Below are positions 11,356 to 56,842 of a DNA stretch of 64,000 nt, one piece after another. Source of the DNA: Alphaproteobacteria bacterium bin98 (GTDB taxonomy: Bacteria > Pseudomonadota > Alphaproteobacteria > Bin98); NCBI GenBank assembly GCA_002238905.1, contig MPNG01000004.1, forward strand, positions 8,461-72,460, read 5' to 3'. The notes below the pieces were generated by a model. It saw only the letters and a list, made by a program, of their open reading frames with translations, was not told the DNA's origin and searched no databases. The stretch's first letter is position 1. Each line of letters starts with the position of its first letter. The translations under genes and the position numbers were made by a program.

Positions 11356-11426
11356 GGCCGGATGGCAGAGTGGTTATGCAGAGGATTGCAAATCCTTGTA
11401 TGTCGGTTCGATTCCGGCTCCGGCCT
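11356..11426 (+). tRNA. tRNA-Cys (GCA); 3' CCA not encoded
   Basis: cloverleaf: acceptor ggccgga/tccggcc, anticodon loop ttGCAaa, T-loop ttcgatt. Confidence 0.85.
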
Positions 11427-11428
11427 GT

Positions 11429-11504
11429 TCCTCGGTAGCTCAGTTGGTAGAGCAGGTGATTGTTACTCACTTGGTCGGCGGTTCGAGTCCGTCCCGAGGA
11501 GCCA
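11429..11504 (+). tRNA. tRNA-Asn (GTT), CCA encoded
   Basis: acceptor tcctcgg/ccgagga, anticodon loop ttGTTac, GTTCGAGTC T-arm. Confidence 0.85.
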
Positions 11505-22721: not shown

Positions 22722-24164
22722 CTATTCAAAGGTTTTGCTTTTAAAGGTTTGCGCAAATGCCGCGAGAATCTCAAGGATATTTCTCGCTTTTGTTGGGATA
22801 GGGCCTATCTTATCAGAAAGAACTGCTATTTGATCTGGAGCGCTAGGAAGATCTTGAGCGTTTTTTTTGCAAGCTTTCCACAAAAGACGTATAGTGTTAA
22901 AAACTTCCTCTGTGTTGTTTCGTAAAATATCCATAACGCTATACAAATCTTGAGCGCATGTTTTTTTAGCTTGCTTGTCTAGTTTATCGGACATGCAAAG
23001 AACAAAATGCGCTATGTCGCAAAGAGGTTGAGTGGAGTCGGTGTTTGGTTGAAGAAAATTGAGGTTTGTTAAAAGGTAGCCTGCATTTTCCAACACTGCC
23101 CAAGAGGAGTGATTATCTCGTGACACCCGAGCAGTACTAGCGGTGCAATTCTTCTTGAGAAAAAGAGGCTCCATATATGTATGAATGTTTAAAAGAGAGT
23201 CGTTCAAGATCGTTAACGTTACTACTGCGTGAACATCTACTAATGATGGTTGTGAAAATATTTGTTCTAGAAAGGAAAACATTATGTCTGCTATGATGAA
23301 AAAAGAATCGCACCTCATTGTTTTTTGATCCATAAAGCACTGTTGTGGGCACCTATCAAAAATTTTTCTGCATGCCATTAAAATGTTTTTGACGGCGTGT
23401 GCAAAGCTTGCTTCACTCATAGTTATGTCGCGCTGTGCGACCATGTGTGATTCATTCAGCGCACTTGTCAGAGGATCCTCTCCAACAAAAAATGGAGATC
23501 CTGCGACACTTTTTGGATCATTTGGTGCACTTCTTGATGCTTTGACACTCAAGAGGAATCTGCGTCCCATTGAATCACCGAAGTCGCCTTCCCATTGAGG
23601 GCTTCCGCTAGATGTTGAATGAACGCAGGAGTGGTCTCTGGGAGGGAATCTGGCGCTTTTTGATGGATAATTTGTGGGAGAGAAGCTGGCGCTTTTGAAT
23701 GGATAATTGGTGGGAGAGAAGCTGGCGCTTTTGGATGGAGAAGCAGGACTTGCTAGGTGGCGGTCGGGAAGTGCAGGGGTATAGCTAAAGAGTCCCAACC
23801 CATTTACAAAGGAGGAAGAGTGCGAATCTTGCAGCGACAAATGAAGCGTTTCTGGGGTAGGTTTTGGCGAAGAAGGTGAAATGAAAAAGCTAGCTACTCT
23901 GGTTAAGTTTTGTGTTGTGGATGTTACAGAGCCTTGTCGAAAAAACAAAGATTTTTCAGATAGTTGTGCAACAATAAGATCGCTTTTTGCGATTGGAAAA
24001 GTGCTCCTTCTTCTGCATTGGTAGGTTGGAAAGTCCAGGGTGTTGGCGGTGTGGATCATTACTTGATCGCTTTGGCTTCGATTTGGTCCATCTTTTGCTG
24101 CATCAGACGCTATAAGCGTAGAGCTAATCCATAAAAAAATGCTGTATGCGATCAAATGTGCCAT
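22722..24164 (-). CDS. hypothetical secreted protein with tandem 12-aa repeats (SASFSPTNYPxK)
   Basis: signal-like N-term; 36-nt tandem array in frame; about 35% GC. Confidence 0.5.
   Translation of the reverse strand: MAHLIAYSIFLWISSTLIASDAAKDGPNRSQSDQVMIHTANTLDFPTYQCRRRSTFPIAKSDLIVAQLSEKSLFFRQGSVTSTTQNLTRVASFFISPSSPKPTPETLHLSLQDSHSSSFVNGLGLFSYTPALPDRHLASPASPSKSASFSPTNYPFKSASFSPTNYPSKSARFPPRDHSCVHSTSSGSPQWEGDFGDSMGRRFLLSVKASRSAPNDPKSVAGSPFFVGEDPLTSALNESHMVAQRDITMSEASFAHAVKNILMACRKIFDRCPQQCFMDQKTMRCDSFFIIADIMFSFLEQIFSQPSLVDVHAVVTLTILNDSLLNIHTYMEPLFLKKNCTASTARVSRDNHSSWAVLENAGYLLTNLNFLQPNTDSTQPLCDIAHFVLCMSDKLDKQAKKTCAQDLYSVMDILRNNTEEVFNTIRLLWKACKKNAQDLPSAPDQIAVLSDKIGPIPTKARNILEILAAFAQTFKSKTFE
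23645..23740. repeat. 36-nt tandem repeat, about 2.7 copies, in-frame within CDS
   Basis: ggaatctggcgctttttgatggataatttgtgggag / agaagctggcgcttttgaatggataattggtgggag / agaagctggcgcttttggatggag. Confidence 0.9.
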
Positions 24165-25101
24165 ATGCCACCTCTTGTGCGTAAGTGTTACCTTGGTTTA
24201 ACACATCAAGCACGAAGGAGCGATCTCTTATGAGATCATGATATTTTGCTTGAATTGGATTTAAAAAAAGAAACATCTCCTCCATCAACATCTCTTTAAG
24301 ATTTTTGCATGATTGCACTGTTTGTAAAATTTCAGTCATGCTCTGATTTTTTAGAACTGAGAGCAGAGAAAGCAGGTTGGTCATCTCAGGTCGTCCTACC
24401 AAATCTGAGGGTGTGTTGGGCCAGGGTTCTGAGTCTGTTTTTGCTCCTTTGATTTTACGAACGATAGCATCTCGTGTGTCGGTCATCAGTAGGCGCGAAA
24501 GTTCAGATGGGTCTGATTTGCTCATTTTGGCAGTGCCATCTTTTAAGCTCATAACGCGAGTGTTGCTTTTCCCCATCATAGGCTCAGGTATAACAAACAG
24601 ATCTTTTTCAGCTAATCCATTAACACGCAGCGCAAGATCACGAGTAAATTCTATGTGTTGTTTTTGATCTTCACCTACAGGCACTAGGTGTGCATCATAG
24701 AGCAAAATATCCGCAGCCATGAGTACAGGGTAGGTGTAAAGCCCTAATGATTCATCTTTTGCTTTGTTATCTTTAAACTGGGTCATGCGGTTGAGCCACC
24801 CTAGAGGTGTTTTGGTAGCAAGAAGCCACAAGAGTTGTGTGTGATAGGGAACACTGCTTTGAATGAATAATGTACTCTGTTTGGGGTCGATACCGCAAGC
24901 AAGGTACATGGCGGCAGTTTCAAAAGACGCTTGAGCAAGTGATGTGTGGTAATTAGCAGTGAGTGAATGCAGGTCTACAATGCAAAAGAAACACTCATTC
25001 TCTTTTTGCAAAGATACCCATTGGTGAATTGCTCCAAAGTAATTTCCAATATGAAGGGGGCTGGGTTGTATGCCAGAAAGAATACGCTTTGTTACTGTCA
25101 T
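24124..25101 (-). CDS. trpS: tryptophan--tRNA ligase
   Basis: start set at MTVTKRILSGIQPSPLHIGNYFG (HIGH-class); KMSKS-like KMSKSD. Confidence 0.9.
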   Translation of the reverse strand: MTVTKRILSGIQPSPLHIGNYFGAIHQWVSLQKENECFFCIVDLHSLTANYHTSLAQASFETAAMYLACGIDPKQSTLFIQSSVPYHTQLLWLLATKTPLGWLNRMTQFKDNKAKDESLGLYTYPVLMAADILLYDAHLVPVGEDQKQHIEFTRDLALRVNGLAEKDLFVIPEPMMGKSNTRVMSLKDGTAKMSKSDPSELSRLLMTDTRDAIVRKIKGAKTDSEPWPNTPSDLVGRPEMTNLLSLLSVLKNQSMTEILQTVQSCKNLKEMLMEEMFLFLNPIQAKYHDLIRDRSFVLDVLNQGNTYAQEVAYGTFDRIQHFFMD

Positions 25102-25895
25102 TTTTCTTTGGGAGGAGGGGTGTATCGAACAAGTTTTTTGAGTTTTTCTAGTCGCATTAATGCCTTGGGTGCTAGATATTTTTCTAGCTCTGCGACATCT
25201 GTAATCAGCAAGCATAAAAATTCTCTAAGATCTCTGGGATTGGATTTTGTACGCATACTTTCTGCTTTATTTCTTAAACTAGGGAGTATAGCAACACCCT
25301 CCATTGCAAAGTCACGCAAATATAAGCGCAGCATACCGCTCTTGTGAGGAATAGCGTTGATGGTGAATGTTCCTTTGAGTACTTGGCCTGAATCTGTATT
25401 TAATGCAATATGCACGGTGTAAATGAAGCGATCGTTATTCCAAGCGCGCTGCTCAGGCGCTTCAATTGTTATAGAAGTGCCGCGTAGCGTGGCAATCATA
25501 GCAGAAATGCTGCGTGCCATAAAGATGGTGATAAGAGAGGATGTTAACCTTAACCATCCTGGATTAACGTTGCTGAGGGCTTTGAGCGTTGGGGCAAACT
25601 TTCGTCCTAGCGTAGGGGACAAGATACTGTTGGGATCAAAGAGCTCTTCGGAGAGGGCGCGTACTTGTTCCCACAAGACAAAGGCATCGACATTTTGATC
25701 ATCAGAGAGGCGTTTGTATCTTGCGTGAATGTTGGTGACAAAAGCATGGATTGTCTGTTCTGTTTTTGCTGCTATAACTTCTGAATTTGGAATTTGTATA
25801 AAAAAACCTTTTTTGGTTGTGTTTGGTGTGCAGGAAGGAGCGCTCATCAAAGTTCCGCTTATGCTCATTAACATTATCAGAATATGCTTCATCAT
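25098..25895 (-). CDS. mlaC: MlaC-like (Ttg2D) periplasmic phospholipid-binding protein
   Basis: signal peptide; motifs IEAPEQ and DFAMEGVAIL match E. coli MlaC IAPEQ / DMIAEGVSMI; adjacent to mlaA. Confidence 0.55.
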   Translation of the reverse strand: MMKHILIMLMSISGTLMSAPSCTPNTTKKGFFIQIPNSEVIAAKTEQTIHAFVTNIHARYKRLSDDQNVDAFVLWEQVRALSEELFDPNSILSPTLGRKFAPTLKALSNVNPGWLRLTSSLITIFMARSISAMIATLRGTSITIEAPEQRAWNNDRFIYTVHIALNTDSGQVLKGTFTINAIPHKSGMLRLYLRDFAMEGVAILPSLRNKAESMRTKSNPRDLREFLCLLITDVAELEKYLAPKALMRLEKLKKLVRYTPPPKEK

Positions 25896-39193: not shown

Positions 39194-40276
39194 ATGTTGG
39201 GAGGCTTTCGTACAGCGCTGCTAGTAGCGCTCTTTATATCATTATTCTGTAACGCAGCGCCGATGCGTGTGGGCGTTATGACATCATCACCACCTTTTGC
39301 ATGGCAAAAGGAAGATGGGTCGTTTCATGGTGCCAGTTTAGACTTATGGTCGGCTATTGCAGAAAAAAATAATTATCGTTTTGAATATGTTTCTGCTGGT
39401 CAAAATATTCAGCAGGCATTAAATCTTTTGGATGCCAAAGAAATAGATGTTCTTGTGGGTCCTATTTCTGTGACAGAGGCACGTTACAAAAAGTATGACT
39501 TCACTCGTCCTTACTTTTTAAATCACTTATCTTTGATTGTTCCTGCAGCAGAAGCAGGAAGTCGTTGGCGTATGCTTGCAAGCGCTTTGTGGGAACCATT
39601 ATCCTTTGTGCTTCCTATTTTGCTTTGTGTGATTCTTGTGATGACTTGTTTCTTTTGTTTCTTTGATAGTGCTGCCAATCGTAAGAAACAACACAGCAAG
39701 CTACACTCCTTTTTTGATGCTTTTTGGGAAGTTGTTTTGATACTGATACAAGGTGAGATATTGCACGACACACGACACACTGGTAAGCGAATCTTGACAT
39801 TAATGTGGCTTATATCCTCTATTGGTCTCTTGTCGATTCTCATAGGAACCGTAACGTCATCTTTGACTGTTTTTGATGAAAAAGCTGAAAAAGCCTATCG
39901 TGTGCTACGCTCTGATTTAGAATCGCAAAAAATAGCTGTTGTGAAAGGCAGTGTGAGCGATCAAGAAGTTCTGCGAGTAGGGGCTGCGCCTGTGCGTGTT
40001 AAAACACGTATGGAAGCTGTGAAGCTTGTTCAAGAGAATGCCGTCTTTGGAATGGTGGATGACTTCTTGATTTTAAAATCTCTACGCTCAGAGAATTCAG
40101 GAATGCGCTCGACGCAACTTAATCTGAAAAATGATGAAATTGCCTTTGCGTTTCCAAAATCATCTCAGTACATTCAAGAGGTTAACAAAGCTATTCTCGC
40201 ACTGCAAGATACAGGAATGTCTGAAACTGTTTGTCGCAAGTACCTCGGCAAAGATGCAGTTTTGTGTTTGCTGTGA
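39194..40276 (+). CDS. ionotropic glutamate receptor-like ligand-gated channel (SBP_bac_3 S1 - M1 - pore loop - M2 - S2)
   Basis: periplasmic binding lobes split by two TM helices and a re-entrant segment FWEVVLILIQGE...RILTLMWLISSIGLLSILIGTVTSSLTV resembling iGluR pore/M3. Confidence 0.6.
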   Translation: MLGGFRTALLVALFISLFCNAAPMRVGVMTSSPPFAWQKEDGSFHGASLDLWSAIAEKNNYRFEYVSAGQNIQQALNLLDAKEIDVLVGPISVTEARYKKYDFTRPYFLNHLSLIVPAAEAGSRWRMLASALWEPLSFVLPILLCVILVMTCFFCFFDSAANRKKQHSKLHSFFDAFWEVVLILIQGEILHDTRHTGKRILTLMWLISSIGLLSILIGTVTSSLTVFDEKAEKAYRVLRSDLESQKIAVVKGSVSDQEVLRVGAAPVRVKTRMEAVKLVQENAVFGMVDDFLILKSLRSENSGMRSTQLNLKNDEIAFAFPKSSQYIQEVNKAILALQDTGMSETVCRKYLGKDAVLCLL

Positions 40277-40295
40277 TTGCTAAAAACATATCTGA

Positions 40296-40328
40296 GCTGT
40301 GGCGCTGAAGCGCCACAGCCTTTTTATT
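40296..40328 (+). terminator. rho-independent terminator
   Basis: perfect 10-bp stem gctgtggcgc/gcgccacagc, loop tgaa, followed by cttttta. Confidence 0.8.
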
Positions 40329-40489
40329 ACTCACTTGTTACTCCATATATGGGAGGTGTGTATTTAAGCAAGATAAGGCGTAAACCAATACCATCTTTAG
40401 TTAGATCTCTTTTAGCCACAACTTTTTCACTTCTACGATAGATCGTTCATTATGATGATGGTATTATGGATCATTATTAAGGAGTAAGA

Positions 40490-41698
40490 ATGAAGAGATT
40501 CATAGTATTAAGTATGTTTTTTACAAATCTATTGATTGGAAGTGAAGGCAGTATTGGAGCAGACGATAGAGAGACGTTGAATGGTGGTAAGCAGCGAACT
40601 GTTCTGCGAATTACTGTAAAGCAAAAAGTTTGTGGTGGGGTAGAAGTTGGTAATGACGTTGCAACGCGAGCTGTGGAGCAATCTGAACCTCCAATTTCTG
40701 TAACTCAACAAGTTTGTGATGCATTGGCAACAAAGGCTTGGGATACTGTATCTAAGGTGAGCAAAAATGATTCTCTACCTCCTGTAGTTTTGCAAGTTGT
40801 GCCTGATGGTTATTATTATGCTCAAGTTTTGAAAGGCGCTAAGGATGCAGGCATGGTGAAGTCAGTCATTCCTATCTCTGCAGAATTTTTTGATCCAGAA
40901 AACGCAATGGAGTTATACCATCAGAGGAAACGGGAAATCTGTCAAGATGAACCAGGAAACATCATTGTTTGTGATGCTGTTTTCGATACTGGCATGACGA
41001 TTGCAAAGATTTTGCTTGTATTGAAAAAGCAAAAACTGGACAGAAAATATCATCTTGCTTTTCTGTACCTTAAATCAAGTCTATGCGATGAAGAAGATAT
41101 TTATGCAGATGCACGCACTAGATTGGCAGAAGCAATGGCATCTGCTCAGACATGTAAACGCCCTTTTAATACACAAGTCGAGCAACACTTGAGTTGGATT
41201 AAAGACCATATCTTAAGCTTTTATGCAGCATCATGTCTAAGCAGCGGTGATATGCCAGGTAGGCTGGTGCTGCCTGCAGAGGACGGAAACCCTATAGATT
41301 CATCATGCCTAACAGATTTTGTGAGATCCATAACAAGTTCTGGCGCAGGTATGAGCAAATATAGTGTTTTGATTTGTTTTTCTTCTGAGATGAATGATTA
41401 TAAAGAAAATCAAGAATTGAGTAATCTATTGAACTACATGAGTGAGCATCCATTGCTTAAAGGCAGAGTGAGCTATGGCATTGGTTATCCTTCTAGTAAA
41501 CAAGGTGAAAAAGTTAAAGAGGTTTTTTTTGCACAAGATACAAGACCTAAAAACCGCGGTCGTGTATTGGGCATTGTTGCGCAAAAAGTGTTCGGTGATT
41601 ATACTGATTTTACAAAATATATCATTAGAAGTGAGGGGTTGAAAGATTTGTGTTACCCCAACCCAATTCCTTTGCTATATGGACAGTGTGATTGTTAA
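40490..41698 (+). CDS. secreted UPRT-like-fold family protein, member 2 (degenerate PRPP loop)
   Basis: SD aaggag; signal peptide; VVPDGYYY and IIVCDAVFDTGMT motifs; about 40% GC. Confidence 0.6.
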   Translation: MKRFIVLSMFFTNLLIGSEGSIGADDRETLNGGKQRTVLRITVKQKVCGGVEVGNDVATRAVEQSEPPISVTQQVCDALATKAWDTVSKVSKNDSLPPVVLQVVPDGYYYAQVLKGAKDAGMVKSVIPISAEFFDPENAMELYHQRKREICQDEPGNIIVCDAVFDTGMTIAKILLVLKKQKLDRKYHLAFLYLKSSLCDEEDIYADARTRLAEAMASAQTCKRPFNTQVEQHLSWIKDHILSFYAASCLSSGDMPGRLVLPAEDGNPIDSSCLTDFVRSITSSGAGMSKYSVLICFSSEMNDYKENQELSNLLNYMSEHPLLKGRVSYGIGYPSSKQGEKVKEVFFAQDTRPKNRGRVLGIVAQKVFGDYTDFTKYIIRSEGLKDLCYPNPIPLLYGQCDC

Positions 41699-41733
41699 TT
41701 AACGAAAACCAGCCAATTAAAAAATATTGAATA

Positions 41734-41773
41734 AAAGCGCAAAAATGACTCTTTGCGCTTTTAGTATTTTTTT
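41734..41773 (+). terminator. rho-independent terminator
   Basis: stem aaagcgcaaa/tttgcgcttt followed by T-run. Confidence 0.7.
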
Positions 41774-41800
41774 GTCACATCAGTCGTTTTTTTCTAGTGG

Positions 41801-42075
41801 ATTGTGCTAAAATCATTCTCGCGAACTGTAAATATGCACATAACAAAAGGAGATAAACTCTTGACGCCAAAGTGTATTTTGCAATTTTAAAGACTTAAAG
41901 TGTAAACATCGTGGCTAGAGAGTCTCTTTTTTTTTAAACAAAACCATCAAGGGCAATGTCGTATCTACGATATACAATTCATTATGATGATGCTATTAAG
42001 GATTATATTGGCGGCGTAAGAGTGAAGATGTTTATAATATTAAGTATTTTTTTTACAAATCTATTGCTGAAGTGA
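41801..42075 (+). pseudogene. mosaic remnant: promoter plus 5' end of member-4-type gene (41801-41965) followed by 5' end of member-2-type gene (41966-42075), both truncated by stops
   Basis: nucleotide similarity to 43392-43560 and to 40431-40545; ATG->TTG then TAA at 41888; second fragment stops at TGA 42073. Confidence 0.7.
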
Positions 42076-42103
42076 ATATAGTGCTTTTGACTCTAGTTGC
42101 GTT

Positions 42104-43357
42104 TTGAGAGACTCTTTGAAAGAGTGGGGGCGCTTGCAAGCTTTGGCACGTAAACCAGGTTACATGCTTGTTAAAAAAAATAGAAATGGCGTTTTTGTGA
42201 AAGAGAATGCTGACTCCGATCAAACGCTATTTGTGTGCAAAGATGGAGAGCAAATAGTGAAGCGTTGTGGTATCTGTGCAGGAGTCAGAAAGGTTCTTCC
42301 CACTATTGCCGTAAGTCAAAAAGTTTCTGATGAATTGGCCGCAGAAGCTTTGCGTTATACTTTAGGTTCAGTAGAGAAAAATTGTGAGCCCTCTCCTGTA
42401 ATTTTCCAAGTGGTGCCTGATGGTTATTATTATGGTGAAGCGTTGAAAGATGCTAAGATTTCAAGTATGGCGATACCAGTCATTGCAGCCTCTGAATCTG
42501 GTCTTGAGAGATTTGCAAATCACCCAGGAAACATCATTATCTGTGATTCTATTTTAGATACTGGAGAGAAGTGTGCAAAGATTTTGCTTGTATTGAGAAA
42601 TCAACAACCGCACAGAAAATACTATCTTGCTTTTCAGTACTTAAAAGAAGATTATTATGCACTCAATGTGACTGCATCTGCACGCCATACCCCTATAAAT
42701 GCTCGATGGATATTGGCAACACGAATGGCACATATTGAGCTTCATATGCCAGAGGAGGCACAAATAAAGAAAAATTATTCTTGGATTCAAGAACATATCT
42801 TAAGCTTTTATGCAGCATCATGTCCAAGCAGGTGTGATATGTCCGGTTGGTTGATCCTTCCTGGAGAAGGCGGAAACCCTATAGAATCTCAATGCTCACT
42901 ATCTCTGATAGAGCACCTAAAACATGTAACCCATAATAGGCACTGTTATGTTTGTTTTTCTTCTGATGCGAGTGACTATGAAGCAAATCAAGTATTGCTA
43001 AAGTTATTGAACTACATGAGTGAGATTGCATGCTTTAAAAGCAGAGTGAGCTATGGCATTTGTGACTATCCTGCTGAGCATGAATCTGGAAAAATGGAAG
43101 AGGTTTTTGTACAAGATACAACACCTGCAAACCGTGATAATGTATATGGCTTCACTATGCAATTATTACAAGATCATCAGGATCATGTTTTTAGCGATTA
43201 TTGCATTGGATTGCCAGCGTTGTGTGACCAAATCCCTTATCCAACAAACCCAGTGCCTTTGGGACCTGCAGAGTGTATGAAAGTTCACAAGCCAAGAGCT
43301 TTAAATGTTATCGCAAAATATTTAATAAAATCGCAAAGATCACTCTTTTTTCTTTGA
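42104..43357 (+). CDS. UPRT-like-fold family protein, member 3; TTG start, no signal peptide in frame (possible pseudogene or leaderless variant)
   Basis: about 55% aa identity to member 2 (NIIICDSILDTGEK, SWIQEHILSFYAASC, LLNYMSE); upstream signal-peptide remnant is in another frame. Confidence 0.5.
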   Translation: MRDSLKEWGRLQALARKPGYMLVKKNRNGVFVKENADSDQTLFVCKDGEQIVKRCGICAGVRKVLPTIAVSQKVSDELAAEALRYTLGSVEKNCEPSPVIFQVVPDGYYYGEALKDAKISSMAIPVIAASESGLERFANHPGNIIICDSILDTGEKCAKILLVLRNQQPHRKYYLAFQYLKEDYYALNVTASARHTPINARWILATRMAHIELHMPEEAQIKKNYSWIQEHILSFYAASCPSRCDMSGWLILPGEGGNPIESQCSLSLIEHLKHVTHNRHCYVCFSSDASDYEANQVLLKLLNYMSEIACFKSRVSYGICDYPAEHESGKMEEVFVQDTTPANRDNVYGFTMQLLQDHQDHVFSDYCIGLPALCDQIPYPTNPVPLGPAECMKVHKPRALNVIAKYLIKSQRSLFFL

Positions 43358-43394
43358 TTATTGTTTCTTCTAACGTTTTTTTTTAGTTTTACTG

Positions 43395-43403
43395 TGCTAT
43401 AAT
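43395..43403 (+). promoter_or_regulatory. extended -10 element TGcTATAAT for member 4
   Basis: TGnTATAAT 45 nt upstream of ATG; the same element, slightly degraded, sits in the remnant at 41804. Confidence 0.45.
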
Positions 43404-43449
43404 CCTTCTAGCGAGGGCAACTGTAGAGCCCATAACAAAAGGAGATATA

Positions 43450-45057
43450 ATGTTGACGCCAAAGTGTATTTTGCTAATGTTTTTAGCAATTTCAAATATT
43501 CAAAGTGAAAACATCGGGGCTAAAGAGCCTCTTTTTTTTAATAAAACACCATCAAGAGAAGTATCGTACATAAGGACACCGCACTATCACACTTCTGATC
43601 CAGATCAAGTCCAACAAAGTGCACCTGTCTCTTTTGATCATATGACAAAAATGCTTGGACCTATTGATAGAGGTGCGCAGTTATTTTGGTTTAAGCATGA
43701 TGATAAGGATCAATATACGCTTATGCTCGCGCCTTCTGAGCGCCTCACAAAACTTTTTGTGATAGTGGCATTGGCTGAAAAATGTCAGCAGATTATAACA
43801 GAAGGTGGTGCGTGGGAAGATATAATGCTTGTTTTGCCAATGCGTGGTGGCACAATTGCAATGGATAAGGGTATGGATATCGACAGCCGTGATGAATGCA
43901 TTGCAGCTCTTACAGAGCTAGGTGTGAGTAAGGATATCCTAGACTTTCTTAAGGAAAATTTTGAACGCATTCGCCATCTTCCTATGTTGCCATTAACGAT
44001 ACAAAGTTTGGTAGGTCGTCAAGTTCAGCAGGATATGCGATTGGGAGATTTAAGCACTGTAACCGCTGAAAAACAACTTATTGTTTGTGACGATCTTGCG
44101 GATACGTTTAGTACGCAAGCGCGCACTATAATGTATATTCTTGATACTTTGCAGGCAAGAGGCGTTATTTTAGAGAAACCTATTGCGCTAGCAGTAGGAT
44201 GTGTGAAAAATGGGCGCCAAGAAGACGTTTCTTTAAAGTGTGGTGATGTACCTGTTAAACTTTTGCAAAAGAAACTGCGTGGCACTGTTGATGAAAGAAT
44301 TGATTTCTTCTTTAACAAAGCTATATGGGAAAATATGATGCAAAAGGATGCAGATTTTTTGAAAAAATTGAATGAAATCGCACAACCAGCAATGCGTCAG
44401 AAGTTAGCTGAAGAGTTTTATACAGCACACAAAAAAGCGATTGAAGATGCAGCGTATAATCTTTACGGATCTCATCTGGATCGTAGTGTAACAAAAGCTC
44501 TTGCTGTTAATACGTTTGTTGATCAAGGATGGACAACAAAAGATTGTGTGGACAATCTTTGGATTGCTTTGCATCAAGTAACGGTAAACTCTTACGCCAA
44601 AGGATCTATGCTGGATATTGTACAGGCCGACTTGTCACAGTATAATTTGGTATTGTTCCCTATGGCTTCTGATGGTAGACATGTGTATGATACAGGTGCT
44701 AATTATAGTAATGAAGCGGAGGAATGGGCTGATTCGATTGGTATGAAGTCTCCTATGCAGTGTCAGTCGCCGATTTATGTGCATGGAAAATCATTCATGC
44801 AAAACGTTAAGGGTAATTATCGGAAGGTGCTGGTTTATGTACCAAAGAAGCTACCGGCATACCTATCCTTTACAAGCGAAGACATGAAGAAGGCTCTTGC
44901 AACAGAAATGCCACACGCAACCATTAGGGTGTATGATCAAGATGCTCAACGTCCACAACCGCTTCCTGCAGGGGGAGCAAAAATTCTTGAGGAAACAAAA
45001 GTGATTACTCAAGAAGAATTGAAAAAGTGTGTGCAGTTAACTGCTCAAAATCACTAA
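43450..45057 (+). CDS. secreted UPRT-like-fold family protein, member 4 (degenerate PRPP loop, long C-terminal domain)
   Basis: signal peptide MLTPKCILLMFLAISNIQS; LVLPMRGGTIAM; LIVCDDLADTFST; about 35% GC. Confidence 0.6.
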   Translation: MLTPKCILLMFLAISNIQSENIGAKEPLFFNKTPSREVSYIRTPHYHTSDPDQVQQSAPVSFDHMTKMLGPIDRGAQLFWFKHDDKDQYTLMLAPSERLTKLFVIVALAEKCQQIITEGGAWEDIMLVLPMRGGTIAMDKGMDIDSRDECIAALTELGVSKDILDFLKENFERIRHLPMLPLTIQSLVGRQVQQDMRLGDLSTVTAEKQLIVCDDLADTFSTQARTIMYILDTLQARGVILEKPIALAVGCVKNGRQEDVSLKCGDVPVKLLQKKLRGTVDERIDFFFNKAIWENMMQKDADFLKKLNEIAQPAMRQKLAEEFYTAHKKAIEDAAYNLYGSHLDRSVTKALAVNTFVDQGWTTKDCVDNLWIALHQVTVNSYAKGSMLDIVQADLSQYNLVLFPMASDGRHVYDTGANYSNEAEEWADSIGMKSPMQCQSPIYVHGKSFMQNVKGNYRKVLVYVPKKLPAYLSFTSEDMKKALATEMPHATIRVYDQDAQRPQPLPAGGAKILEETKVITQEELKKCVQLTAQNH

Positions 45058-47648
45058 GACCGTACAGCATCAAAGCGCGCAAGAGACTCTTGCGCAGCTT
45101 TGATGCTTTCTTGTAAAGAAACCACCTTATTGCGCCAAAGATCTTTTGTTTCTGCAGGGGCTTTTATTTGCTTGTTGATTTTATTCTGAAGAGATTCAGT
45201 ATGCGCTTGTATTTCTTTGATTTTTTTGTGCAGCAGATCTTGTTCATTGTTAATATCCATGTGCGGCGCAGTGATAAAGAGGGAGGTTTTTCCAACAGCA
45301 ACGCGTAAGGTTAGAGGCGCCTTTGATCGATCGCACCATATCACATCAAGTGGGCACATATGAGAAAAGAGTGATGAAAACAGTGAAAACTGCTTTTTGA
45401 CCTCTGAATCTTCGCTCCATAAGGCGCAGACCATGTCTGTGCTGGGAAGGTGCTTATGGTAGGATCTCACTTGATTAACCACATCTTGAAACCACTGCAT
45501 AGAGGCAGGTTCCGATGTGCTGTTTTGCGCTGTTGGCCATGGATGAAGCGCTAAAGCATTTTGTTGCTCAAAGGACTGCCAGATTTCTTCTGTGATATGT
45601 GGTGCGTAAGGATGAAGTAATATCAAAAACCTTTGTAAACAGAATCCAAATGTTGCATATGTTTCGGGAGCGTATTCTTCTTCTGCGAACAGCGGTTTTG
45701 TGCCCTCGATATACCAATCACAAAAGAAGTGCCAAAACGCTTTATATAATGTGAGCGCTGCTTCTTGAAATCCGTAAGTGTTTAACGATTTTGTAATCGC
45801 TGTGGTGGTTTCATTAATGATGTGTAGCACCCATTGATTCAGGGGGTGTGCTGGTGTAGGCTCTGCGTGTATAAGCGAGACGTTGTTCATGTGTGCGTAA
45901 CGTGCGGTATTCCATATTTTAGTGCAAAAGTTACGCATAGAAACGATGGTTTGTGGTGATAGTCGCACATCTTGTCCAGGAGAGGCGCTGTACATGAGCG
46001 TTAAGCGCAGGCTATCGGCACCGTATTCTTCCAAAATAGAAAGAGGATTGACAACGTTTCCTTTAGATTTAGACATTTTTTGGCCTTTTTCATCACGAAT
46101 AAGTCCATGAATTAACACATGACGAAAAGGAACAGTGTTTGTGAGTTGCAGGGACATCATCATCATTCGTGCAACCCAAAAGAAAATAATATCAAAACCT
46201 GTGACCAAAACGCTGGAAGGAAAATGTTCCGGGTGTGGTGTTTTTGTGGGCCAGTCGAGTGTGGCAAACGGCCATAGGCCAGAAGAAAACCATGTATCTA
46301 ACACATCGTTGTCTTGCTGTAGTGTTGTGGGTTTTCCATAATGTGTGAAGGCTTGTTCTTGTGCTTCTTGTTCTGAATGAGCCACAAAGTAATGGTTGTC
46401 AGGACCCCACCATACAGGAATGCGATGGCCCCAATAAATTTGACGTGAAATACACCAAGGCTCAATATTATCTAGCCATTGCTGAAACACTTTCCCCCAA
46501 CGCGATGGAAAAAATTGTACATCGCCCTTTTTAAAAGCGATCAGAGATTTTTCAGCCATTGGTTTGGTGTCTACAAACCACTGATCGGTCAGAAATGGCT
46601 CTATGACTGTGTTAGAACGGTCTCCGTAAGGCACTGTGTGATTACAAGATTCCTCTTGCACAATGTGATTTTTTGAGGCGAGTTCTTGCAGAATTTGTTT
46701 GCGCGCTTTGAATACAGAAAGGTTGTGGTAGTGAGCAGGTGTGCGTTCGTTGAGAGAACCATCTTTGTTTAAAATATTGACACTATCAAGATTATGACGT
46801 TTTCCAACAGCGTGATCATTAAAATCGTGTGCAGGAGTAATTTTAACCACACCAGATCCCTTATCTGGTTGGGCGTGATGATCTGCTATGATGGGAATTT
46901 CTTTATTGATAATGGGAATAAACGCTTTTTTTCCAATAAAGTTTTGATAGCGCTCGTCGCTGGGGTGTACTGCAAGAGCTGTGTCACCAAACAAAGTTTC
47001 TGGACGTGTTGTGGCGACTGTTAAGGGAGTGATCTCTGTTTCATAAGTAATATGATAGAGTGTGCCTTTTTGTTCTTTTTGGAGGATTTCAAGATCAGAA
47101 ATGGCTGTTTGTAGTTTTGTGTCCCAATTTACTAACGTTTTTTTTCTAAAAATAAGACCTTGCTGGTGTAGGCGTACAAAAGCGGTGGTTACTGCGTGAG
47201 AGAGGCCTGTATCCATTGTAAAGCGGGTACGCTCCCAATGGGCACTTGTGCCAAGTGTTTTGAGCTGGTTCAGAATGGTGTCGTTATAAAGGTGCTTCCA
47301 TTCCCATATATGCTTTAGTAATTCTTCGCGCGAGAGTGTGTGTGCGTTAATACCTTTTTCTGTGAGGTCTTGGATCACACGTGTTTGGGTTGCGATTCCT
47401 GCATGATCTGTGCCTGGTTGCCAAAGAATATTTTTTTGCTGCATGCGGTGAAATCGCATGAGTGCGTCCTGTAAAGAGAAAGTGAGTGCGTGGCCTACGT
47501 GCAATGATCCGGTGACATTAGCCGGTGGCATCATAATGGTAAAGGTGCCTTTTTCTTTTTGTGGCTCTTGATAATGCTCAATGCGGTGTTTTTTCCAAAC
47601 ATCACGGCTTTTTTGTTCAACGGTTGGCGCGTGATACTTTTTATCCAT
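45054..47648 (-). CDS. valS: valine--tRNA ligase
   Basis: HVGHALT, KMSKS, C-terminal coiled coil; 4-nt convergent overlap with member 4. Confidence 0.95.
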   Translation of the reverse strand: MDKKYHAPTVEQKSRDVWKKHRIEHYQEPQKEKGTFTIMMPPANVTGSLHVGHALTFSLQDALMRFHRMQQKNILWQPGTDHAGIATQTRVIQDLTEKGINAHTLSREELLKHIWEWKHLYNDTILNQLKTLGTSAHWERTRFTMDTGLSHAVTTAFVRLHQQGLIFRKKTLVNWDTKLQTAISDLEILQKEQKGTLYHITYETEITPLTVATTRPETLFGDTALAVHPSDERYQNFIGKKAFIPIINKEIPIIADHHAQPDKGSGVVKITPAHDFNDHAVGKRHNLDSVNILNKDGSLNERTPAHYHNLSVFKARKQILQELASKNHIVQEESCNHTVPYGDRSNTVIEPFLTDQWFVDTKPMAEKSLIAFKKGDVQFFPSRWGKVFQQWLDNIEPWCISRQIYWGHRIPVWWGPDNHYFVAHSEQEAQEQAFTHYGKPTTLQQDNDVLDTWFSSGLWPFATLDWPTKTPHPEHFPSSVLVTGFDIIFFWVARMMMMSLQLTNTVPFRHVLIHGLIRDEKGQKMSKSKGNVVNPLSILEEYGADSLRLTLMYSASPGQDVRLSPQTIVSMRNFCTKIWNTARYAHMNNVSLIHAEPTPAHPLNQWVLHIINETTTAITKSLNTYGFQEAALTLYKAFWHFFCDWYIEGTKPLFAEEEYAPETYATFGFCLQRFLILLHPYAPHITEEIWQSFEQQNALALHPWPTAQNSTSEPASMQWFQDVVNQVRSYHKHLPSTDMVCALWSEDSEVKKQFSLFSSLFSHMCPLDVIWCDRSKAPLTLRVAVGKTSLFITAPHMDINNEQDLLHKKIKEIQAHTESLQNKINKQIKAPAETKDLWRNKVVSLQESIKAAQESLARFDAVRS

Positions 47649-51218: not shown

Positions 51219-53150
51219 CTAAGTTAAACGCATCGCTTCTGTTTGTGCTTTGTAAAGACTGTAAAATGTACCTTGTTGTGCGAGCAGTTCATCAAATTGC
51301 CCTTGTTCAATGATCTTTCCTTCTGAAAACACAAGAATAGTGTCCATTGCGCGAAGAGATGCAACGCGGTGTGTGGCGATGAGAGCAGTTTTTCCATCCA
51401 TAAGATCGGTAATCGTCTCTTGGATTTTTTGCTCTGTTAAGGGGTCCAGCTGAGAAGCTGCTTCATCTAGAACAAGGATAGGTGCGTTTTTTAAAATAAC
51501 TCTTGCAATAGTAACTCGTTGTTTTTGGCCGCCAGAAAGTTTTAATCCTTGTTCACCAACGATAGAGTCGTATCCTTCAGGCTTTGTTTTAATAAAGGAG
51601 TCAGCGTCTGCTAGTTGTGCAGCGCGTGTAACTTCTTCCATAGAAGCATTGGGTTTTCCATAAAGGATATTTTCTTTTAAAGAGCGATGAAATAGCTGTG
51701 CATGCTGCGGAATGCATCCAACAGCTTGATGCAGCGATGAGATTTGAATGTTGCGTATATCTTGTCCATCTAAGGTGATTGAGCCAGAGTCAACATCATA
51801 GAGTCGTAAAAACAGGTTTAGAAAAGAGGATTTACCACTTCCTGACTCACCCACAATGCCTACCTTCTGTCCATGTGGAATGGTTAAGGAGAGGTTTTCA
51901 AAAAGAGGCTCTTCTTCTTTGTTGTAGGAGAATGTAACGTTGTGAAAAGTGATTGCTCCACGGGTTTTTTTCAAAGGCTCTGCTTCTGGCGAGTCCTTTG
52001 TTCCTATGGGTGCAAGAAGATCTGAAAGAGCACTGTTTACTTGCCCAGTTGCGTCTTGAAGGTCGTGCACACGGTGTACCAGGTTCCATAGGTTGTCTGC
52101 AATATACGCAGAGCTTCCGAGGATAAAAACCGCATCACCAAGAGAAAGTTTGCTGTGTTCATACATAAGCAGAAGGCCAAAAGCGCCACATGCCAAAAGA
52201 GATGACATGCAAATCCCCTGCAAAATATTCATAACGAAAATGGTCCATTCTTTACGCTGATAAGCGAGAAAAAGCTGTGATGTAAATGAGCGAATGTATT
52301 GGGTTTCAAAGTCCAATCGTGAAAAAAGGCGCACAGTATCTATATTAGCAGTGCTGTCTACAATGCGGCCAGAAACATTCGCTAGTTCTTGAGCATAAAG
52401 CGCTCCGTTGCGCATGATGCGGCGTTGAAAGAGGGCAATGATCACAAAAAACACGCATACCCAAAGAGCAAAAAATGTGGCAAAAAGGGGATGGATAAAG
52501 GCGATTGCGACTGAGGAGATGAAGATTTGCGCTACCGCATGTAAGACGCACGCCATGGCGCCGTAGCATGTGCTTTCAGCAAAGAGCGCTACAATATTAA
52601 TTTTTGCGGATAAAGATCCTTTCAGATTATTTTGAAAAAACGCATGAGAATGTTGACCAATATAGTTGAACAGGTGGCTCATGATTTTTGTTTTTATCAT
52701 TGGCGCCGTATGAATACGAATAATACCAATGCAGCGCCAAAGCAGCTGGTTGCCTTGATGCACAAGAATATAAACAATGACGCTTGCAAAAGCGCTATCA
52801 AACGCTAATGCAGGAGATATGTTGAGGGAGTCGATAATTTTTTTAAGGGTGAATGAACTGACTGTCGAATAGCTGCTGGCGCCAATTAAGGCTATAAAGA
52901 ATAGTACAACACGAACGGGGTAGTCTTTGTAACACCAGTGTAAAAAAGGCCAAAACGTTTGAGGTATTTTTTGTTGTTTGTCGTTCACATTACATAATAC
53001 ACGCTTACAAAAAATAAAAAAAGGGATTAGAACATTAAGAAAAAATGTTAGTCTTTGTTGTATATGGAGAGTGCATGACAGAAAAGATAGCAGTTGGTTT
53101 GGTATGTGGTGGCCCTTCTTTGGAGCGTGGTATTTCTTTAAATTCAGCAC
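51219..53150 (-). CDS. ABC exporter, fused permease/ATPase (MsbA-like)
   Basis: 6-TM N-domain; Walker A GESGSGKSS, signature LSGGQKQRV, Walker B ILVLDEA; true start uncertain. Confidence 0.8.
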   Translation of the reverse strand: MLNLKKYHAPKKGHHIPNQLLSFLSCTLHIQQRLTFFLNVLIPFFIFCKRVLCNVNDKQQKIPQTFWPFLHWCYKDYPVRVVLFFIALIGASSYSTVSSFTLKKIIDSLNISPALAFDSAFASVIVYILVHQGNQLLWRCIGIIRIHTAPMIKTKIMSHLFNYIGQHSHAFFQNNLKGSLSAKINIVALFAESTCYGAMACVLHAVAQIFISSVAIAFIHPLFATFFALWVCVFFVIIALFQRRIMRNGALYAQELANVSGRIVDSTANIDTVRLFSRLDFETQYIRSFTSQLFLAYQRKEWTIFVMNILQGICMSSLLACGAFGLLLMYEHSKLSLGDAVFILGSSAYIADNLWNLVHRVHDLQDATGQVNSALSDLLAPIGTKDSPEAEPLKKTRGAITFHNVTFSYNKEEEPLFENLSLTIPHGQKVGIVGESGSGKSSFLNLFLRLYDVDSGSITLDGQDIRNIQISSLHQAVGCIPQHAQLFHRSLKENILYGKPNASMEEVTRAAQLADADSFIKTKPEGYDSIVGEQGLKLSGGQKQRVTIARVILKNAPILVLDEAASQLDPLTEQKIQETITDLMDGKTALIATHRVASLRAMDTILVFSEGKIIEQGQFDELLAQQGTFYSLYKAQTEAMRLT

Positions 53151-55450
53151 GCACGCTTTTGGACCACTTAGGCGCTTCGGACGACATAGAGATTGTGCCT
53201 TTTTATGTAGATGTAAAGGAGCGATTTTACCGTATTACCTGTGCTCAGCTTTACTCTAACACCCCATCAGATTTTGATTTTAAACTAACAAAAAAAGATC
53301 TATTACCATGGGAGAAATGTGTAGAGCATATGCGAGATTTGGATATTGTTTTTCCTGTGATTCATGGTGCGTTTGGCGAAGATGGAACGTTGCAGAGATT
53401 GCTAAACGAAGCTGGTATTCCGTTTGTGGGCGCGGACGCTTCTTGCTGCCGTCAAATGGTAGATAAAAAATCTATGCGTATGTTTTTGAAAAAGAAGAAA
53501 CTGGGTCATTTAGAGTCGTTGCAGGTTTTGTATCAAGGTGAGTCAGGGTTGGCATGGATGGTTCAAAAATTTTGGGATGAATCTGTCCAGAATGCAGCGG
53601 TTGTGAAACCCAATAGGGGTGGATCATCCATTGGCGTTTCCATGGTTACGAGTGTGGATGAAGCCATGCGCTGTGTGTCAGATTTGCATGATCGGGGTGA
53701 AAAAGAGGTCATCTTGGAGCCGTTTGTGCATGGTCGTGAATTTACCGTTATTGTGTTACAGGACCATGAAACAGGCTCGCCAGTGGCACTTCTTCCTACA
53801 GAAATAAGTCTTTTGACGGAAGAGAGATTTCCAATGTTTTCTTACCGACGAAAATATTTACCAACCGCGAATACACTGTGGACGTGTCCATCGTTTGAAG
53901 AAAACCATATGTTAGAAAGCATTCAAAAAGAAGCGGAGTGTCTTTTTGAGAGTTTGGGGTGTCGTGATTTTGTACGATTTGATGGATGGGTTGTGGATGG
54001 CCGTATTGTATGGTCGGACTTTAACCCTATTAGCGGTTTTGAACAAAACAGTTTTATATTTTTGCAAGGTGTACGAACAGGCATGACCCATCAACACGTG
54101 CTGCGCTATATTCTTAATAACGCTTTGCAGCGTGTTGATAAAGCGCTGCCACTTGGTGTGGAATATGACCCTGAGGTGTCTGGTCGCAGCGTGAGGGTGC
54201 TGTTTGGTGGAGATACGGCTGAAAGGCAGGTATCACTGATGAGTGGATTGAATGTTTGGTTGCAGTTGATGCACACCCGCAATTATGTGGTTACGCCTTA
54301 TTTATTGTCAGGCAATGATGTGTGGCAAATACCGTATGCATTTGCGTTGTTTCATACAGTGGAAGAAATTTTAGAACAATGCCAAAGTGCTCTTGCTGTG
54401 CGAAAATCGGTGTTGTCGCTGCGAGCTGACTTGCGTGATCGGCTGCATCTGGCGCCCATGGAAGATTTTGAGATGCCTACACGTACATCGTTGACAGAAT
54501 TTATCGCTCAGGCAAAATCTGATAATGCCTATGTGTTTTTGGGGCTTCATGGCGGTATAGGGGAAGATGGAAGCATACAAGCGCTTTTAACGCAAAGTGG
54601 CTGTCAATATAATGGATCACTTTCTGAGCCAAGCGCTTTGTTTATGGATAAGAAGCGCACAGGAGAGTATATTAACTCCTTGCATATGTCGCATATATCA
54701 GCTCTTCCTAAGATTTTGCTTTCTGCTAAAGAGGGAGTGAGCTCTTTTGACAATTTATGGAAACGTTTGGTTTCTGATTTGGGTTCAAAAAAAATTATTA
54801 TTAAGCCAAACTTTGATGGTTGTTCTGCGGGTGTGGTGTTATTAACGAGAGCGCATGATTTGAAAATATACTTTTCTTTGCTTGGTCAGGAAGCTGTGGA
54901 AATTCCTCCACATACCTTTGAAGCGCAAGAAAGCGTTATTGTGTTGCCGCATGCAGAAGAGCTTATTTGTGAGCCATTCATTGAGTGTGACGAGATTTGT
55001 ATTCGCAATCAAGAGCTTACTCTTAAGAAAAAAACAGGTTGGGTGGAGCTTACGGTAGGGGTTGTGCGTGCAAGTGGTCAGCAGAGGCATCACGCATTTC
55101 ATCCAAGCATGACGATAGCGGATGGATCCGTTTTAAGTTTAGAAGAAAAATTCCAAGGAGGAACAGGCATTAATATTACACCTCCGCCTGTGCTTGTGAT
55201 GTCAGAAGATGACATTATAGTAATGCGGAAAAGGCTATCTGATCTAGCAAGTAAGCTAGGAGTTGGTGATTATGCGCGCATTGATCTTTTTTACCATCGT
55301 GAGCGCAAAGAAATGTGTATCATTGAGGTAAATGCTTTGCCGGGATTGACGCCATCAACAGTGTTGTACCATCAGTCCCTTGCTGACGAAACTCCCCTGA
55401 CTCCAAGGGAGTTTCTAGCGTTTATGTTGAAGAGATCAGCGCAATCTTAA
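53075..55450 (+). CDS. ddl: tandem-fused double D-alanine--D-alanine ligase (two complete ATP-grasp Ddl modules)
   Basis: module 1 VIHGAFGEDGTLQ...GGSSIG...RRKYLP...SDFNPISG; module 2 GLHGGIGEDGSIQ...DGCSAG...IEVNALPG. Confidence 0.8.
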   Translation: MTEKIAVGLVCGGPSLERGISLNSARTLLDHLGASDDIEIVPFYVDVKERFYRITCAQLYSNTPSDFDFKLTKKDLLPWEKCVEHMRDLDIVFPVIHGAFGEDGTLQRLLNEAGIPFVGADASCCRQMVDKKSMRMFLKKKKLGHLESLQVLYQGESGLAWMVQKFWDESVQNAAVVKPNRGGSSIGVSMVTSVDEAMRCVSDLHDRGEKEVILEPFVHGREFTVIVLQDHETGSPVALLPTEISLLTEERFPMFSYRRKYLPTANTLWTCPSFEENHMLESIQKEAECLFESLGCRDFVRFDGWVVDGRIVWSDFNPISGFEQNSFIFLQGVRTGMTHQHVLRYILNNALQRVDKALPLGVEYDPEVSGRSVRVLFGGDTAERQVSLMSGLNVWLQLMHTRNYVVTPYLLSGNDVWQIPYAFALFHTVEEILEQCQSALAVRKSVLSLRADLRDRLHLAPMEDFEMPTRTSLTEFIAQAKSDNAYVFLGLHGGIGEDGSIQALLTQSGCQYNGSLSEPSALFMDKKRTGEYINSLHMSHISALPKILLSAKEGVSSFDNLWKRLVSDLGSKKIIIKPNFDGCSAGVVLLTRAHDLKIYFSLLGQEAVEIPPHTFEAQESVIVLPHAEELICEPFIECDEICIRNQELTLKKKTGWVELTVGVVRASGQQRHHAFHPSMTIADGSVLSLEEKFQGGTGINITPPPVLVMSEDDIIVMRKRLSDLASKLGVGDYARIDLFYHRERKEMCIIEVNALPGLTPSTVLYHQSLADETPLTPREFLAFMLKRSAQS

Positions 55451-56703
55451 TACCCTTGTTGTGCGATTTGGAAATTGTTTCCAATACCAGCAAATGGATT
55501 GTTAGGAGGAGGAAATCCGCCTGGAGCGAAGTTAGGGGGAGGGAGGAATCCACCTCCTCCACCGAAGGCACCAGGTTGTATGCCTGCTGGTCCGTACCCA
55601 CCACTTCCTGTCGATCCAAATCCAAATCCGCCTGTTGTGCCTACGCCTTGGGCTTGTTGGCCTTGACTTACCATTTTCATAAAGGCTTGCTGTGATCCTT
55701 TGCGTGGTGTAAACCAGGCCTTGGAAAGAGTGATGTCGCCCAATTGTGCATCACCTATTAGACAAGCTGGCACAATTTCATGCTCCGCTATTATTTGCAT
55801 CCTTTCACCGTTGTTAGGGTGAAAAATACGACCTGAGAGACAAACAGTGTTGCAGAAAGCGACAATGATTTCTGCAACATCTTTCGCAAAATCATCTTTG
55901 GCGCTTCCCTCTTGCGCTTGGTTTTCGCTACCCGGGAAATTACCAGGATATCGGGAAAATGCCATTGGGTTTACAAGAAGCGCTAGCTTGGATGTAAGCG
56001 CTTGTACAGGGTCCCAGTCTTCGACTGGTTGGGCTTCCTTGTCTGTAGCCAAAGCACAGATAAGCGCTTTCTTCTCTCTTGCGTCTTTTAATGGCTGGGA
56101 ACCATCCACTTGGTTTTCAAAAGCCTCTGTATTTTCCGCAGATCGCGGAAAAGCGAATTTATGCCCATTATACAGTTTTGTAGCCTGATTCCACTGGGCC
56201 CGCAATGGTGAGTCAATACGCATATCCATTCCTATACTTCGAGGTCCCTGCATGCAAAGCTGTGTACACTTAGCCCCCGCCCAACCAGGGTGTGCTGTCC
56301 CCAGTGCCCTAAGAAGTTGTCGAATTTGACCAGCTTGAGTTAATATACCGCCACCATGGTGTAAAAAACAACGCATAAGACCGAGAATAGGATCACCTGT
56401 TGAAATACAGGGCCCCATAGTGGCCTGTCCGAATTTTTGTGCAGCACGTTTAGCTTTGTTTTTGAAAAAACTCAAAGAGCGTGTGAGGCGATGCTTGGCT
56501 TTGTTTGCCACCGCAATTCCTGCATATCGGGTGCCACTATATGCTCCTTGTGCTGCTCCTTGTATTTCTTGGGAGAAGCCCTGTCCATCTTCGCTGCCAT
56601 TCCCATACTGCTGCTGATACTCATACTGCTGCTGATACTGATCAGTAGACATGAGCACAGATGAATGACAGGCTATCAAAATAAATAAAAAAAGTAAAGC
56701 CAT
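55447..56703 (-). CDS. hypothetical secreted protein with QQYEY repeats and C-terminal Gly/Pro/Phe-rich low-complexity tail
   Basis: SD aggggaggag; signal peptide MALLFLFILIACHSSVLMS; tail GFGFGSTGSGGYG...GGGGGFLPPPNFAPGGFPPPNNPF. Confidence 0.55.
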   Translation of the reverse strand: MALLFLFILIACHSSVLMSTDQYQQQYEYQQQYGNGSEDGQGFSQEIQGAAQGAYSGTRYAGIAVANKAKHRLTRSLSFFKNKAKRAAQKFGQATMGPCISTGDPILGLMRCFLHHGGGILTQAGQIRQLLRALGTAHPGWAGAKCTQLCMQGPRSIGMDMRIDSPLRAQWNQATKLYNGHKFAFPRSAENTEAFENQVDGSQPLKDAREKKALICALATDKEAQPVEDWDPVQALTSKLALLVNPMAFSRYPGNFPGSENQAQEGSAKDDFAKDVAEIIVAFCNTVCLSGRIFHPNNGERMQIIAEHEIVPACLIGDAQLGDITLSKAWFTPRKGSQQAFMKMVSQGQQAQGVGTTGGFGFGSTGSGGYGPAGIQPGAFGGGGGFLPPPNFAPGGFPPPNNPFAGIGNNFQIAQQGY

Positions 56704-56842
56704 TACTTTTCTCCTCCCCTCACTATATCTACCAGGGCTACTGTTAAAAAGCAAGATGGTAATGCTGCAAAGTTTGTATAAATAATTTGATATGAACTAG
56801 TTAGGCACTGTACCTCTAAATTTATATTCGTTAAAATGAACT

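Follow-up and report, generated by a model that had tools for sequence, protein, structure and literature searches.

A stretch of 64,000 nucleotides from the metagenome-assembled genome of Alphaproteobacteria bacterium bin98 (GenBank assembly GCA_002238905.1, contig MPNG01000004.1, positions 8,461 to 72,460; here called the window and numbered from its first letter) carries four forward-strand genes that we designate A (33557-35167), B (40490-41698), C (42104-43357) and D (43450-45057). We propose, at a probability of about 0.6, that these genes represent a lineage-restricted, probably Sec-exported protein family with a phosphoribosyltransferase (PRT) fold, in which a conserved branch containing A stands beside a decayed, fast-evolving array. 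An earlier note made from the letters of this DNA (hereafter the original prediction) had placed four open reading frames (ORFs) at these positions, and all four were found there.

Under this proposal, the family would consist of two-domain proteins, with an N-terminal type I PRT fold and an uncharacterised C-terminal half of about 250-300 amino acids (aa). The A branch would be single-copy, always placed between map and sfsA, and would keep every PRT ligand-binding element: the pyrophosphate (PPi) loop, the conserved Q, R and K of the flexible loop, and the DD...SGGT loop that binds 5-phosphoribosyl 1-pyrophosphate (PRPP). The array branch, represented here by D and in relatives by at least three tandem copies, would lie downstream of a gene resembling a solute-binding protein (SBP) or ligand-gated channel; with a decayed acidic pair and phosphate loop, its members would most likely be non-catalytic binding or structural scaffolds, that is, pseudoenzymes. 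B and C would be a further derived subtype of shorter proteins, born of a single head-to-tail duplication of 1.53 kb, after which their amino acids changed at a near-neutral pace with the frames open, in keeping with diversifying or birth-and-death evolution; C would now be in the course of loss.

Gene A and the shared phosphoribosyltransferase-like core

Gene A is the conserved, single-copy member of the family. It encodes a signal-like N-terminus, a type I PRT-fold domain spanning roughly residues 80-235 and a C-terminal half that is alpha/beta and uncharacterised, and its true start is likely the ATG at 33560, 5 nt past the Shine-Dalgarno (SD) sequence AGGAG at 33550-33554. An exhaustive hidden Markov model (HMM) search with A and one orthologue as queries defined an A family of six members (A with P0003, P0005, P0007, P0008 and P0009), with identities of 24-46%. 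When A, B and D were used in word-indexed protein searches, nothing came back but the queries themselves, a variant of C from another strain and a single A orthologue, and scans of genome contigs and metagenome contigs with the A-family alignment gave no matches. The relatives are thus a mere handful among the billions of proteins searched, and no Pfam, NCBIfam or PADLOC family matches were obtained, which agrees with the statement of the original prediction that it recognised no described family.

The invariant residues of the A family concentrate in the functional loops of the PRT fold. They are R128 in the PPi-loop motif PMRGG (33932-33946); Q161, R164 and K175, which belong to the flexible loop; and, within the PRPP-binding loop YIVDDIVKSGGT (34130-34165), D195, D196, G201 and T203. 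This placement argues for a live ligand-binding site. Judged from these residues, A probably still binds PRPP or another 5-phosphoribosyl ligand, and it may also turn such a ligand over. The S/T-G-x-T PRPP motif with its two acidic residues is complete in A and incomplete in B, C and D, so the only intact PRPP loop is that of A, just as had been claimed.

The type I PRT assignment was supported at the levels of structure and of profile. The AlphaFold2 (AF2) model of A, built on a six-sequence alignment, reached a predicted local distance difference test (pLDDT) score of 72 and a predicted template modelling (pTM) score of 0.76. A Foldseek search with this model, the kind of check that the original prediction had suggested, returned PRTases as the PDB matches listed and as the stronger of the BFVD matches. 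Against PF00156 (gathering cut-off 26.3 bits), A scored 19.8-23.4 bits, below the cut-off, and its orthologue P0003 scored 28.8 bits, above it; five of the six A-family members matched at E<=1. Independently, a profile of B and C matched PDB entry 7kl6 at E 4e-4 over about 90 residues (database of 177,635 sequences), and B alone matched the same entry at E 0.0098. PF00156 gave no match for B, C or D, and one D-family member matched it at E 0.004; the D family has no sequence homologues in the PDB.

Plain BLASTP identified B and C as clear paralogues (43% identity, E 3e-79), found a 31-aa local match between A and D (E 0.004), and gave nothing significant for A-B or B-D. The wider kinship of the four genes became visible through profiles that include sequences from other genomes. 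In hhalign comparisons of the N-domains, the D family matched the A family with a probability of 92.9% (E 3.6e-7) over 118 columns, a stretch that starts ahead of the PPi loop and takes in the PRPP loop, and matched B/C at E 2.9e-4 over 101 columns; the A family matched B/C at E 0.011. The corresponding profile scores were 46.6, 29.0 and 20.6, compared with about 11-12 +/- 2.4 in column-shuffled nulls, and the observed value was reached by none of 150 shuffles in each comparison. The claim of four paralogs sharing one core therefore stands at the level of profiles, and pairwise BLASTP bears it out clearly for B and C only. The picture of a shared PRT-like core joined to non-homologous C-terminal extensions likewise holds: no significant C-terminal similarity was found between groups. 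A C-terminal homology between the A family and B/C was considered and set aside (E 0.07, with suggestive collinear motifs WLVSPFEAGMP and RLVLPAEDGNPI), and an internal duplication relating the N- and C-domains was unsupported. An identity as a defence-system PRTase was also rejected, since PADLOC returned no match at E<=0.1 for any of A-D. Cysteine content did not set the family apart from housekeeping proteins, and literature searches on 'PRTase-CE' and on secreted PRT-like effectors found nothing.

The original prediction had derived the core specifically from uracil phosphoribosyltransferase (Upp) and placed the family on a low-GC island acquired within high-GC housekeeping DNA, a reading that we consider very improbable. 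Its Upp component draws on a faint PF14681 match of the PRPP-loop fragment of B (E 0.24, 11.3 bits against a cut-off of 27 bits); the same model found nothing in A, C or D. The best matches are instead generic and 6-oxopurine PRTases, PF00156 and 7kl6 are the only database-significant sequence matches, and a regular-expression search for G[LIV]GD, which we take to be the C-terminal uracil-binding motif marking Upp, found it in none of A, B, C and D. The island component fares no better, as described below with the genomic setting.

Motif decay, duplication and rates in the B-C-D cluster

The clustered copies carry degraded active-site motifs, in agreement with the original prediction. In B (402 aa, with a signal-like N-terminus at residues 1-20 and a PRT-like domain with altered loops), VVPDGYYY stands at 40796-40819 in place of the PPi loop, PDGYYY replacing the PMRGG-type sequence, and the PRPP loop IIVCDAVFDTGMT (40961-40999) has its first acidic residue changed to Cys. 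C, a B paralogue of 417 codons that lacks the signal peptide, has VVPDGYYY as in B and the PRPP loop IIICDSILDTGEK (42533-42571). D (535 aa, with a signal-like N-terminus) retains the PPi loop PMRGG at 43837-43851, and its decayed PRPP loop LIVCDDLADTFST (44077-44115) has lost the first acid and a Gly. All of these motifs, and PMRGG and YIVDDIVKSGGT in A, occur where they had been reported. Stepwise erosion of the PRPP loop extends along the array branch, which includes two array genes from each of the related contigs L007 and L009: D reads CD...DTFST, L7_1 AD...DSCLT, L7_2 FD...DTGEV, L9_1 FS...NTGRQ and L9_2 FC...NVGRA. On these motifs, B, C and D are likely non-catalytic scaffolds.

The same loops could alternatively belong to enzymes with altered chemistry, in which the Cys that has taken the place of the first acid in the PRPP loop (IVCD) would serve a new catalytic or metal-binding function and the substrate would be something other than PRPP. 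The Cys is indeed common to B, C and D despite the 43% identity of B and C, the canonical DTGMT phosphate-binding loop is kept in B, and the PPi loop PMRGG is kept in D. However, relatives have Ala or Phe at the Cys position, the loop is wholly degenerate in L009 (FSDVFNTGRQ and FCANFNVGRA), B and C are without a PPi loop, and the residues that the A family conserves in its flexible loop are missing. We therefore regard new chemistry as unlikely.

The history of B and C is recorded in an exact head-to-tail duplication. Self-comparison by blastn aligned 40432-40546 with 41964-42076 (81%) and 40694-41963 with 42305-43568 (66%), which delimits two forward-strand units. Unit 1 (40432-41963) contains the B promoter and SD, gene B, a terminator-like hairpin with a T-run (41732-41763), and a dead D promoter with the first codons of D. 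In unit 2 (41964-43568), gene C follows a B-type 5' region that has decayed, and the live promoter of D comes next with about the first 40 codons of D. The duplicated unit of 1.53 kb begins 58 nt before B and ends about 119 nt inside D, and this end-point within D accounts for a dead D 5' fragment in the spacer between B and C. The fragment (41769-41963), which copies the promoter and SD of D along with its 5' coding end, was identified by its alignment with 43358-43568 and by tblastn with D residues 1-54; its ATG has become CTC, 13 nt are deleted, and its frame reads LLTPKCILQF before a stop. The 5-kb locus thus preserves an evolutionary sequence of duplication junction, dead gene fragment, live copy and dying copy, and offers a tidy case study.

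Expression signals are retained upstream of B and D, where the original prediction had noted SD and extended -10 elements. B is preceded by the extended -10-like TGgTATTAT (40459-40467) and the SD AAGGAG (40479-40484), and D by the extended -10 TGcTATAAT (43395-43403) and the SD AGGAG (43440-43444); both were read from the sequence, a consensus promoter scan being no better than chance overall. The NCBI annotation of B (P0001, 394 aa) begins at Met9 and thereby removes the signal-like peptide (40490-40513); the SD at 40479-40484 favours the ATG at 40490 as the start of B. In C, by contrast, the corresponding SD AAGGAG has become GGCGGC and the ATG has become GTG. A remnant of its original start and signal peptide persists at 42022-42072 and reads VKMFIILSIFFTNLLLK up to a TGA stop, a 2-nt deletion having put these codons out of the frame of the ORF. 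Five other assemblies of the same organism could be aligned over 40000-45200 and were identical to the window except for one 14-nt indel: the 14 nt are missing from the window at 43276-43279 and present in all five, and the difference alters the C-terminus of C. The lost SD, start codon and signal peptide, together with this frameshifting 3' polymorphism, indicate that C is probably being inactivated and lost.

Rates of change between B and C were estimated over 310 codons by four methods. The ratio of nonsynonymous to synonymous divergence (dN/dS) was 1.15 (NG86), 1.11 (LWL85), 1.09 (YN00) and 1.07 (maximum likelihood), with dS at 0.34-0.38, so sites that change the amino acid evolve roughly as fast as neutral ones. 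Divergence of the non-coding flanks is p = 0.18, about half of dS, as expected if one side of each flank pair drifts freely, and dS is thus a fair neutral yardstick. In a neutral simulation with d = 0.17 per lineage, 7-8 stops were expected in each copy (an ORF of about 400 codons) and the probability of no stop was <=0.0005, which argues that selection preserved the frames over most of the time since B and C diverged. Diversifying or birth-and-death evolution accounts for this pattern better than plain decay does.

A competing account treats B, C and D as decaying relics that became functionless after duplication and drift neutrally in a reductive genome, their open frames being leftovers. 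The dN/dS of about 1.1, the ruined 5' end and 3' polymorphism of C, the vanished active-site motifs, the position of the cluster at the GC minimum of the window and the failure of AF2 to fold B are all compatible with it. Against it stand the unbroken frames just described and the SD, extended -10 and signal-like N-terminus retained in both B and D; D-type arrays of at least three genes also persist at the equivalent place in two relatives whose ArgS is just 54% identical to that of the window. On balance, neutral relics seem an improbable explanation of the cluster.

Synteny, putative export signals and genomic setting

The arrangement of both branches is conserved in distant relatives known from metagenomes. 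A orthologues on contigs L007-L010 adjoin map, with sfsA on the other side wherever the contig reaches that far (L007, L009 and L010). On L010, the A orthologue P0007 (6864-8437) lacks an N-terminus and has an 80-aa ORF directly upstream; its truncation probably reflects a frameshift, or a single gene split in assembly. At the position of B-C-D, L007 and L009 each carry three tandem Pfam-less genes of 500-570 aa straight after a gene with SBP_bac_3 and Lig_chan matches, the third gene of each being known as a fragment only. D matches these genes by BLASTP (L7_1, E 4e-10; L9_1, 1e-7; L9_2, 2e-7). L9_1 and L9_2 are 42.5% identical within their genome and cross-genome array pairs are about 20-25% identical, which indicates lineage-specific expansion.

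The upstream neighbour of the array in the window (39194-40276, +) corresponds to that of L007 and L009. Besides an SBP_bac_3 domain it shows hydrophobic segments and a faint match to Lig_chan, which makes it a candidate for a ligand-gated channel of the GluR0 type. Between this gene and B lies a strong terminator (40296-40319). Judged by this conserved gene order, the array is ancestral at its syntenic position and not a recent import, which removes the foreign island implied by the original prediction. Base composition points the same way. The window has a GC content of 42.7% throughout, with no 1-kb stretch above 49.8%, so the surroundings of at least 50% GC that had been claimed do not exist; the cluster, at 38.6%, is the lowest of all 4.66-kb stretches in the window, yet just about 4 points under the mean.

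Within the syntenic block, A and the D-type arrays are the fastest-evolving genes in the relatives. Identities between the window and L007/L009 were 80/75% for rpsD, 73/77% for Bax1-I, 64/72% for map, 59/57% for the SBP gene, 54/54% for argS and 45/51% for sfsA, compared with 37/27% for A and 22/23% for D. The fast evolution proposed for the cluster is thus borne out twice, by a B/C dN/dS of 1.07-1.15 and by a D that is 22-23% identical to its positional counterparts among neighbours at 45-80%.

Signal-like peptides had been ascribed to all four proteins; A, B and D have them, whereas C has lost its own, as shown by the out-of-frame remnant. The extreme N-terminus is strongly hydrophobic in every full-length member except C, namely A, B, D, four A orthologues and six array proteins of L007/L009. 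Maximal Kyte-Doolittle values (11 residues, first 70 aa) were 2.0-3.3 at the extreme N-terminus in A, B, D and the full-length relatives, and 1.36, at an internal position, in C. Most members show a basic n-region followed by acidic residues, the classical signal-peptide pattern, and no lipobox was evident in these N-termini. Family members other than C are, on these patterns, probably Sec-exported. A stronger version, in which this uncultured lineage would export a catalytically competent A together with the diversifying PRT-derived pseudoenzymes D, B and C, all acting outside the cytoplasm, is a speculative extension to which we attach little weight. If true, it would add a novel class of secreted effectors or surface proteins in which a salvage-enzyme fold is joined to a new C-terminal domain, with host or environmental phosphoribosyl or nucleotide ligands as examples of possible targets.

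The rest of the window is dense in housekeeping genes, including ileS, trpS/tyrS, argS, valS, glyQS, nrdAB, ftsH, mutL and mipZ, and tblastn with A-D found no further paralogues in its 64 kb. The convergent overlap of D with valS measures 4 nt (45054-45057), as originally described. Just beyond the D stop, within the 3' coding end of valS, lies a near-perfect palindrome (45066-45107, core GCGCAAGAG-a-CTCTTGCGC) that may be a D terminator embedded in valS. Four more ORFs without a Pfam match have signal-like N-termini (21452-22606, 22722-24164, 25098-25895 and 55447-56754, all on the minus strand), and the genome seems rich in lineage-specific proteins with such putative export signals. L010 likewise contains, between a polyprenyl synthase gene and rpsD, a Pfam-less ORF of 701 aa with a signal-like N-terminus (10156-12261); it bears no obvious likeness to the PRT-like family, no formal comparison having been made.

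Three further observations concern individual genes. A tRNA-Gln gene (32513-32587, -) sits within a mechanically called ORF (31557-32588, -), whose true SurA/rotamase-like gene probably starts at an internal MRTILTTF.... An 801-aa ORF (53045-55450, +) contains two D-Ala-D-Ala ligase stretches and could represent a fusion or duplication of Ddl. In GTDB, ArgS (36691-38376, +) has its best matches at just about 42% identity, mostly in Lachnospiraceae/Clostridia and with few in Alphaproteobacteria, and no close genome was found by ArgS among the GTDB representatives; these matches suggest either an unsampled lineage or an unusual history of argS.

Weighing the proposal and comparison with known systems

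Several points weigh against the proposed family of exported PRT-fold proteins. The PRT fold of B, C and D is read from profiles alone, the AF2 model of B (three-sequence alignment) had a pLDDT of 31 and was unusable, and no significant resemblance links the C-terminal halves of the different groups, which also lack any Pfam or PDB sequence match. The phosphate loop of B, DTGMT, is near-canonical, so that B may still bind a ligand, and a single-pair dN/dS of about 1 cannot tell diversifying selection from relaxed constraint. The export call is based on hydrophobicity and charge patterns alone, and the n-region of A has no positive charge. PRPP is cytoplasmic, which makes an exported PRT with an intact PRPP site, as in A, an odd combination. 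The role that the original prediction had suggested, as an effector or surface-protein family of a host-associated bacterium, is putative, and so is the host association of the organism itself.

If the export signals are real, the locus would represent an enzyme fold recruited as a fast-evolving extracytoplasmic scaffold, PRTases being textbook cytoplasmic nucleotide enzymes. It would be further distinguished by its new C-terminal domain and by having separated into two parts, a conserved member whose site is intact and a birth-and-death array whose sites are dead. Its reach is limited, the family being known from a mere handful of metagenomic sequences and its function being putative.

Three known systems offer points of comparison. 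The first is the type I PRTases (PF00156), in particular small 6-oxopurine enzymes like Helicobacter pylori XGHPRT (7kl6), with which the family shares a collinear PPi loop and 13-residue PRPP loop and, in A, the acidic pair and S/T-G-x-T phosphate loop. It differs from them in its signal-like N-termini and its uncharacterised C-terminal half of 250-300 aa, in the loss of the first acidic residue from B, C and D and of the PPi loop from B and C, and in the score of A under the Pfam cut-off. The PRTases described so far are cytoplasmic enzymes of housekeeping or salvage, and they are not known to form fast-evolving tandem arrays.

The second comprises PyrR, PurR, the PRPP-synthetase-associated proteins and PRTFDC1, precedents in which the PRT fold serves ligand binding or regulation while catalysis is weak or absent; several non-catalytic PRT-fold proteins occur among our structural or sequence matches. 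Those proteins, however, are cytoplasmic regulators with conserved sequences, and the present family differs from them in domain architecture and in its putative signal peptide, with no helix-turn-helix and no hint of RNA or DNA binding.

The third consists of the rapidly diversifying tandem families of exported and surface proteins in host-associated bacteria. The present family has no homology to any named family of that kind, and it is built on an enzyme fold instead of a repeat or beta-barrel. It nevertheless shares with them a lineage-specific tandem expansion, a dN/dS of about 1 with open frames, pseudogene remnants between copies, low GC and signal-like N-termini.

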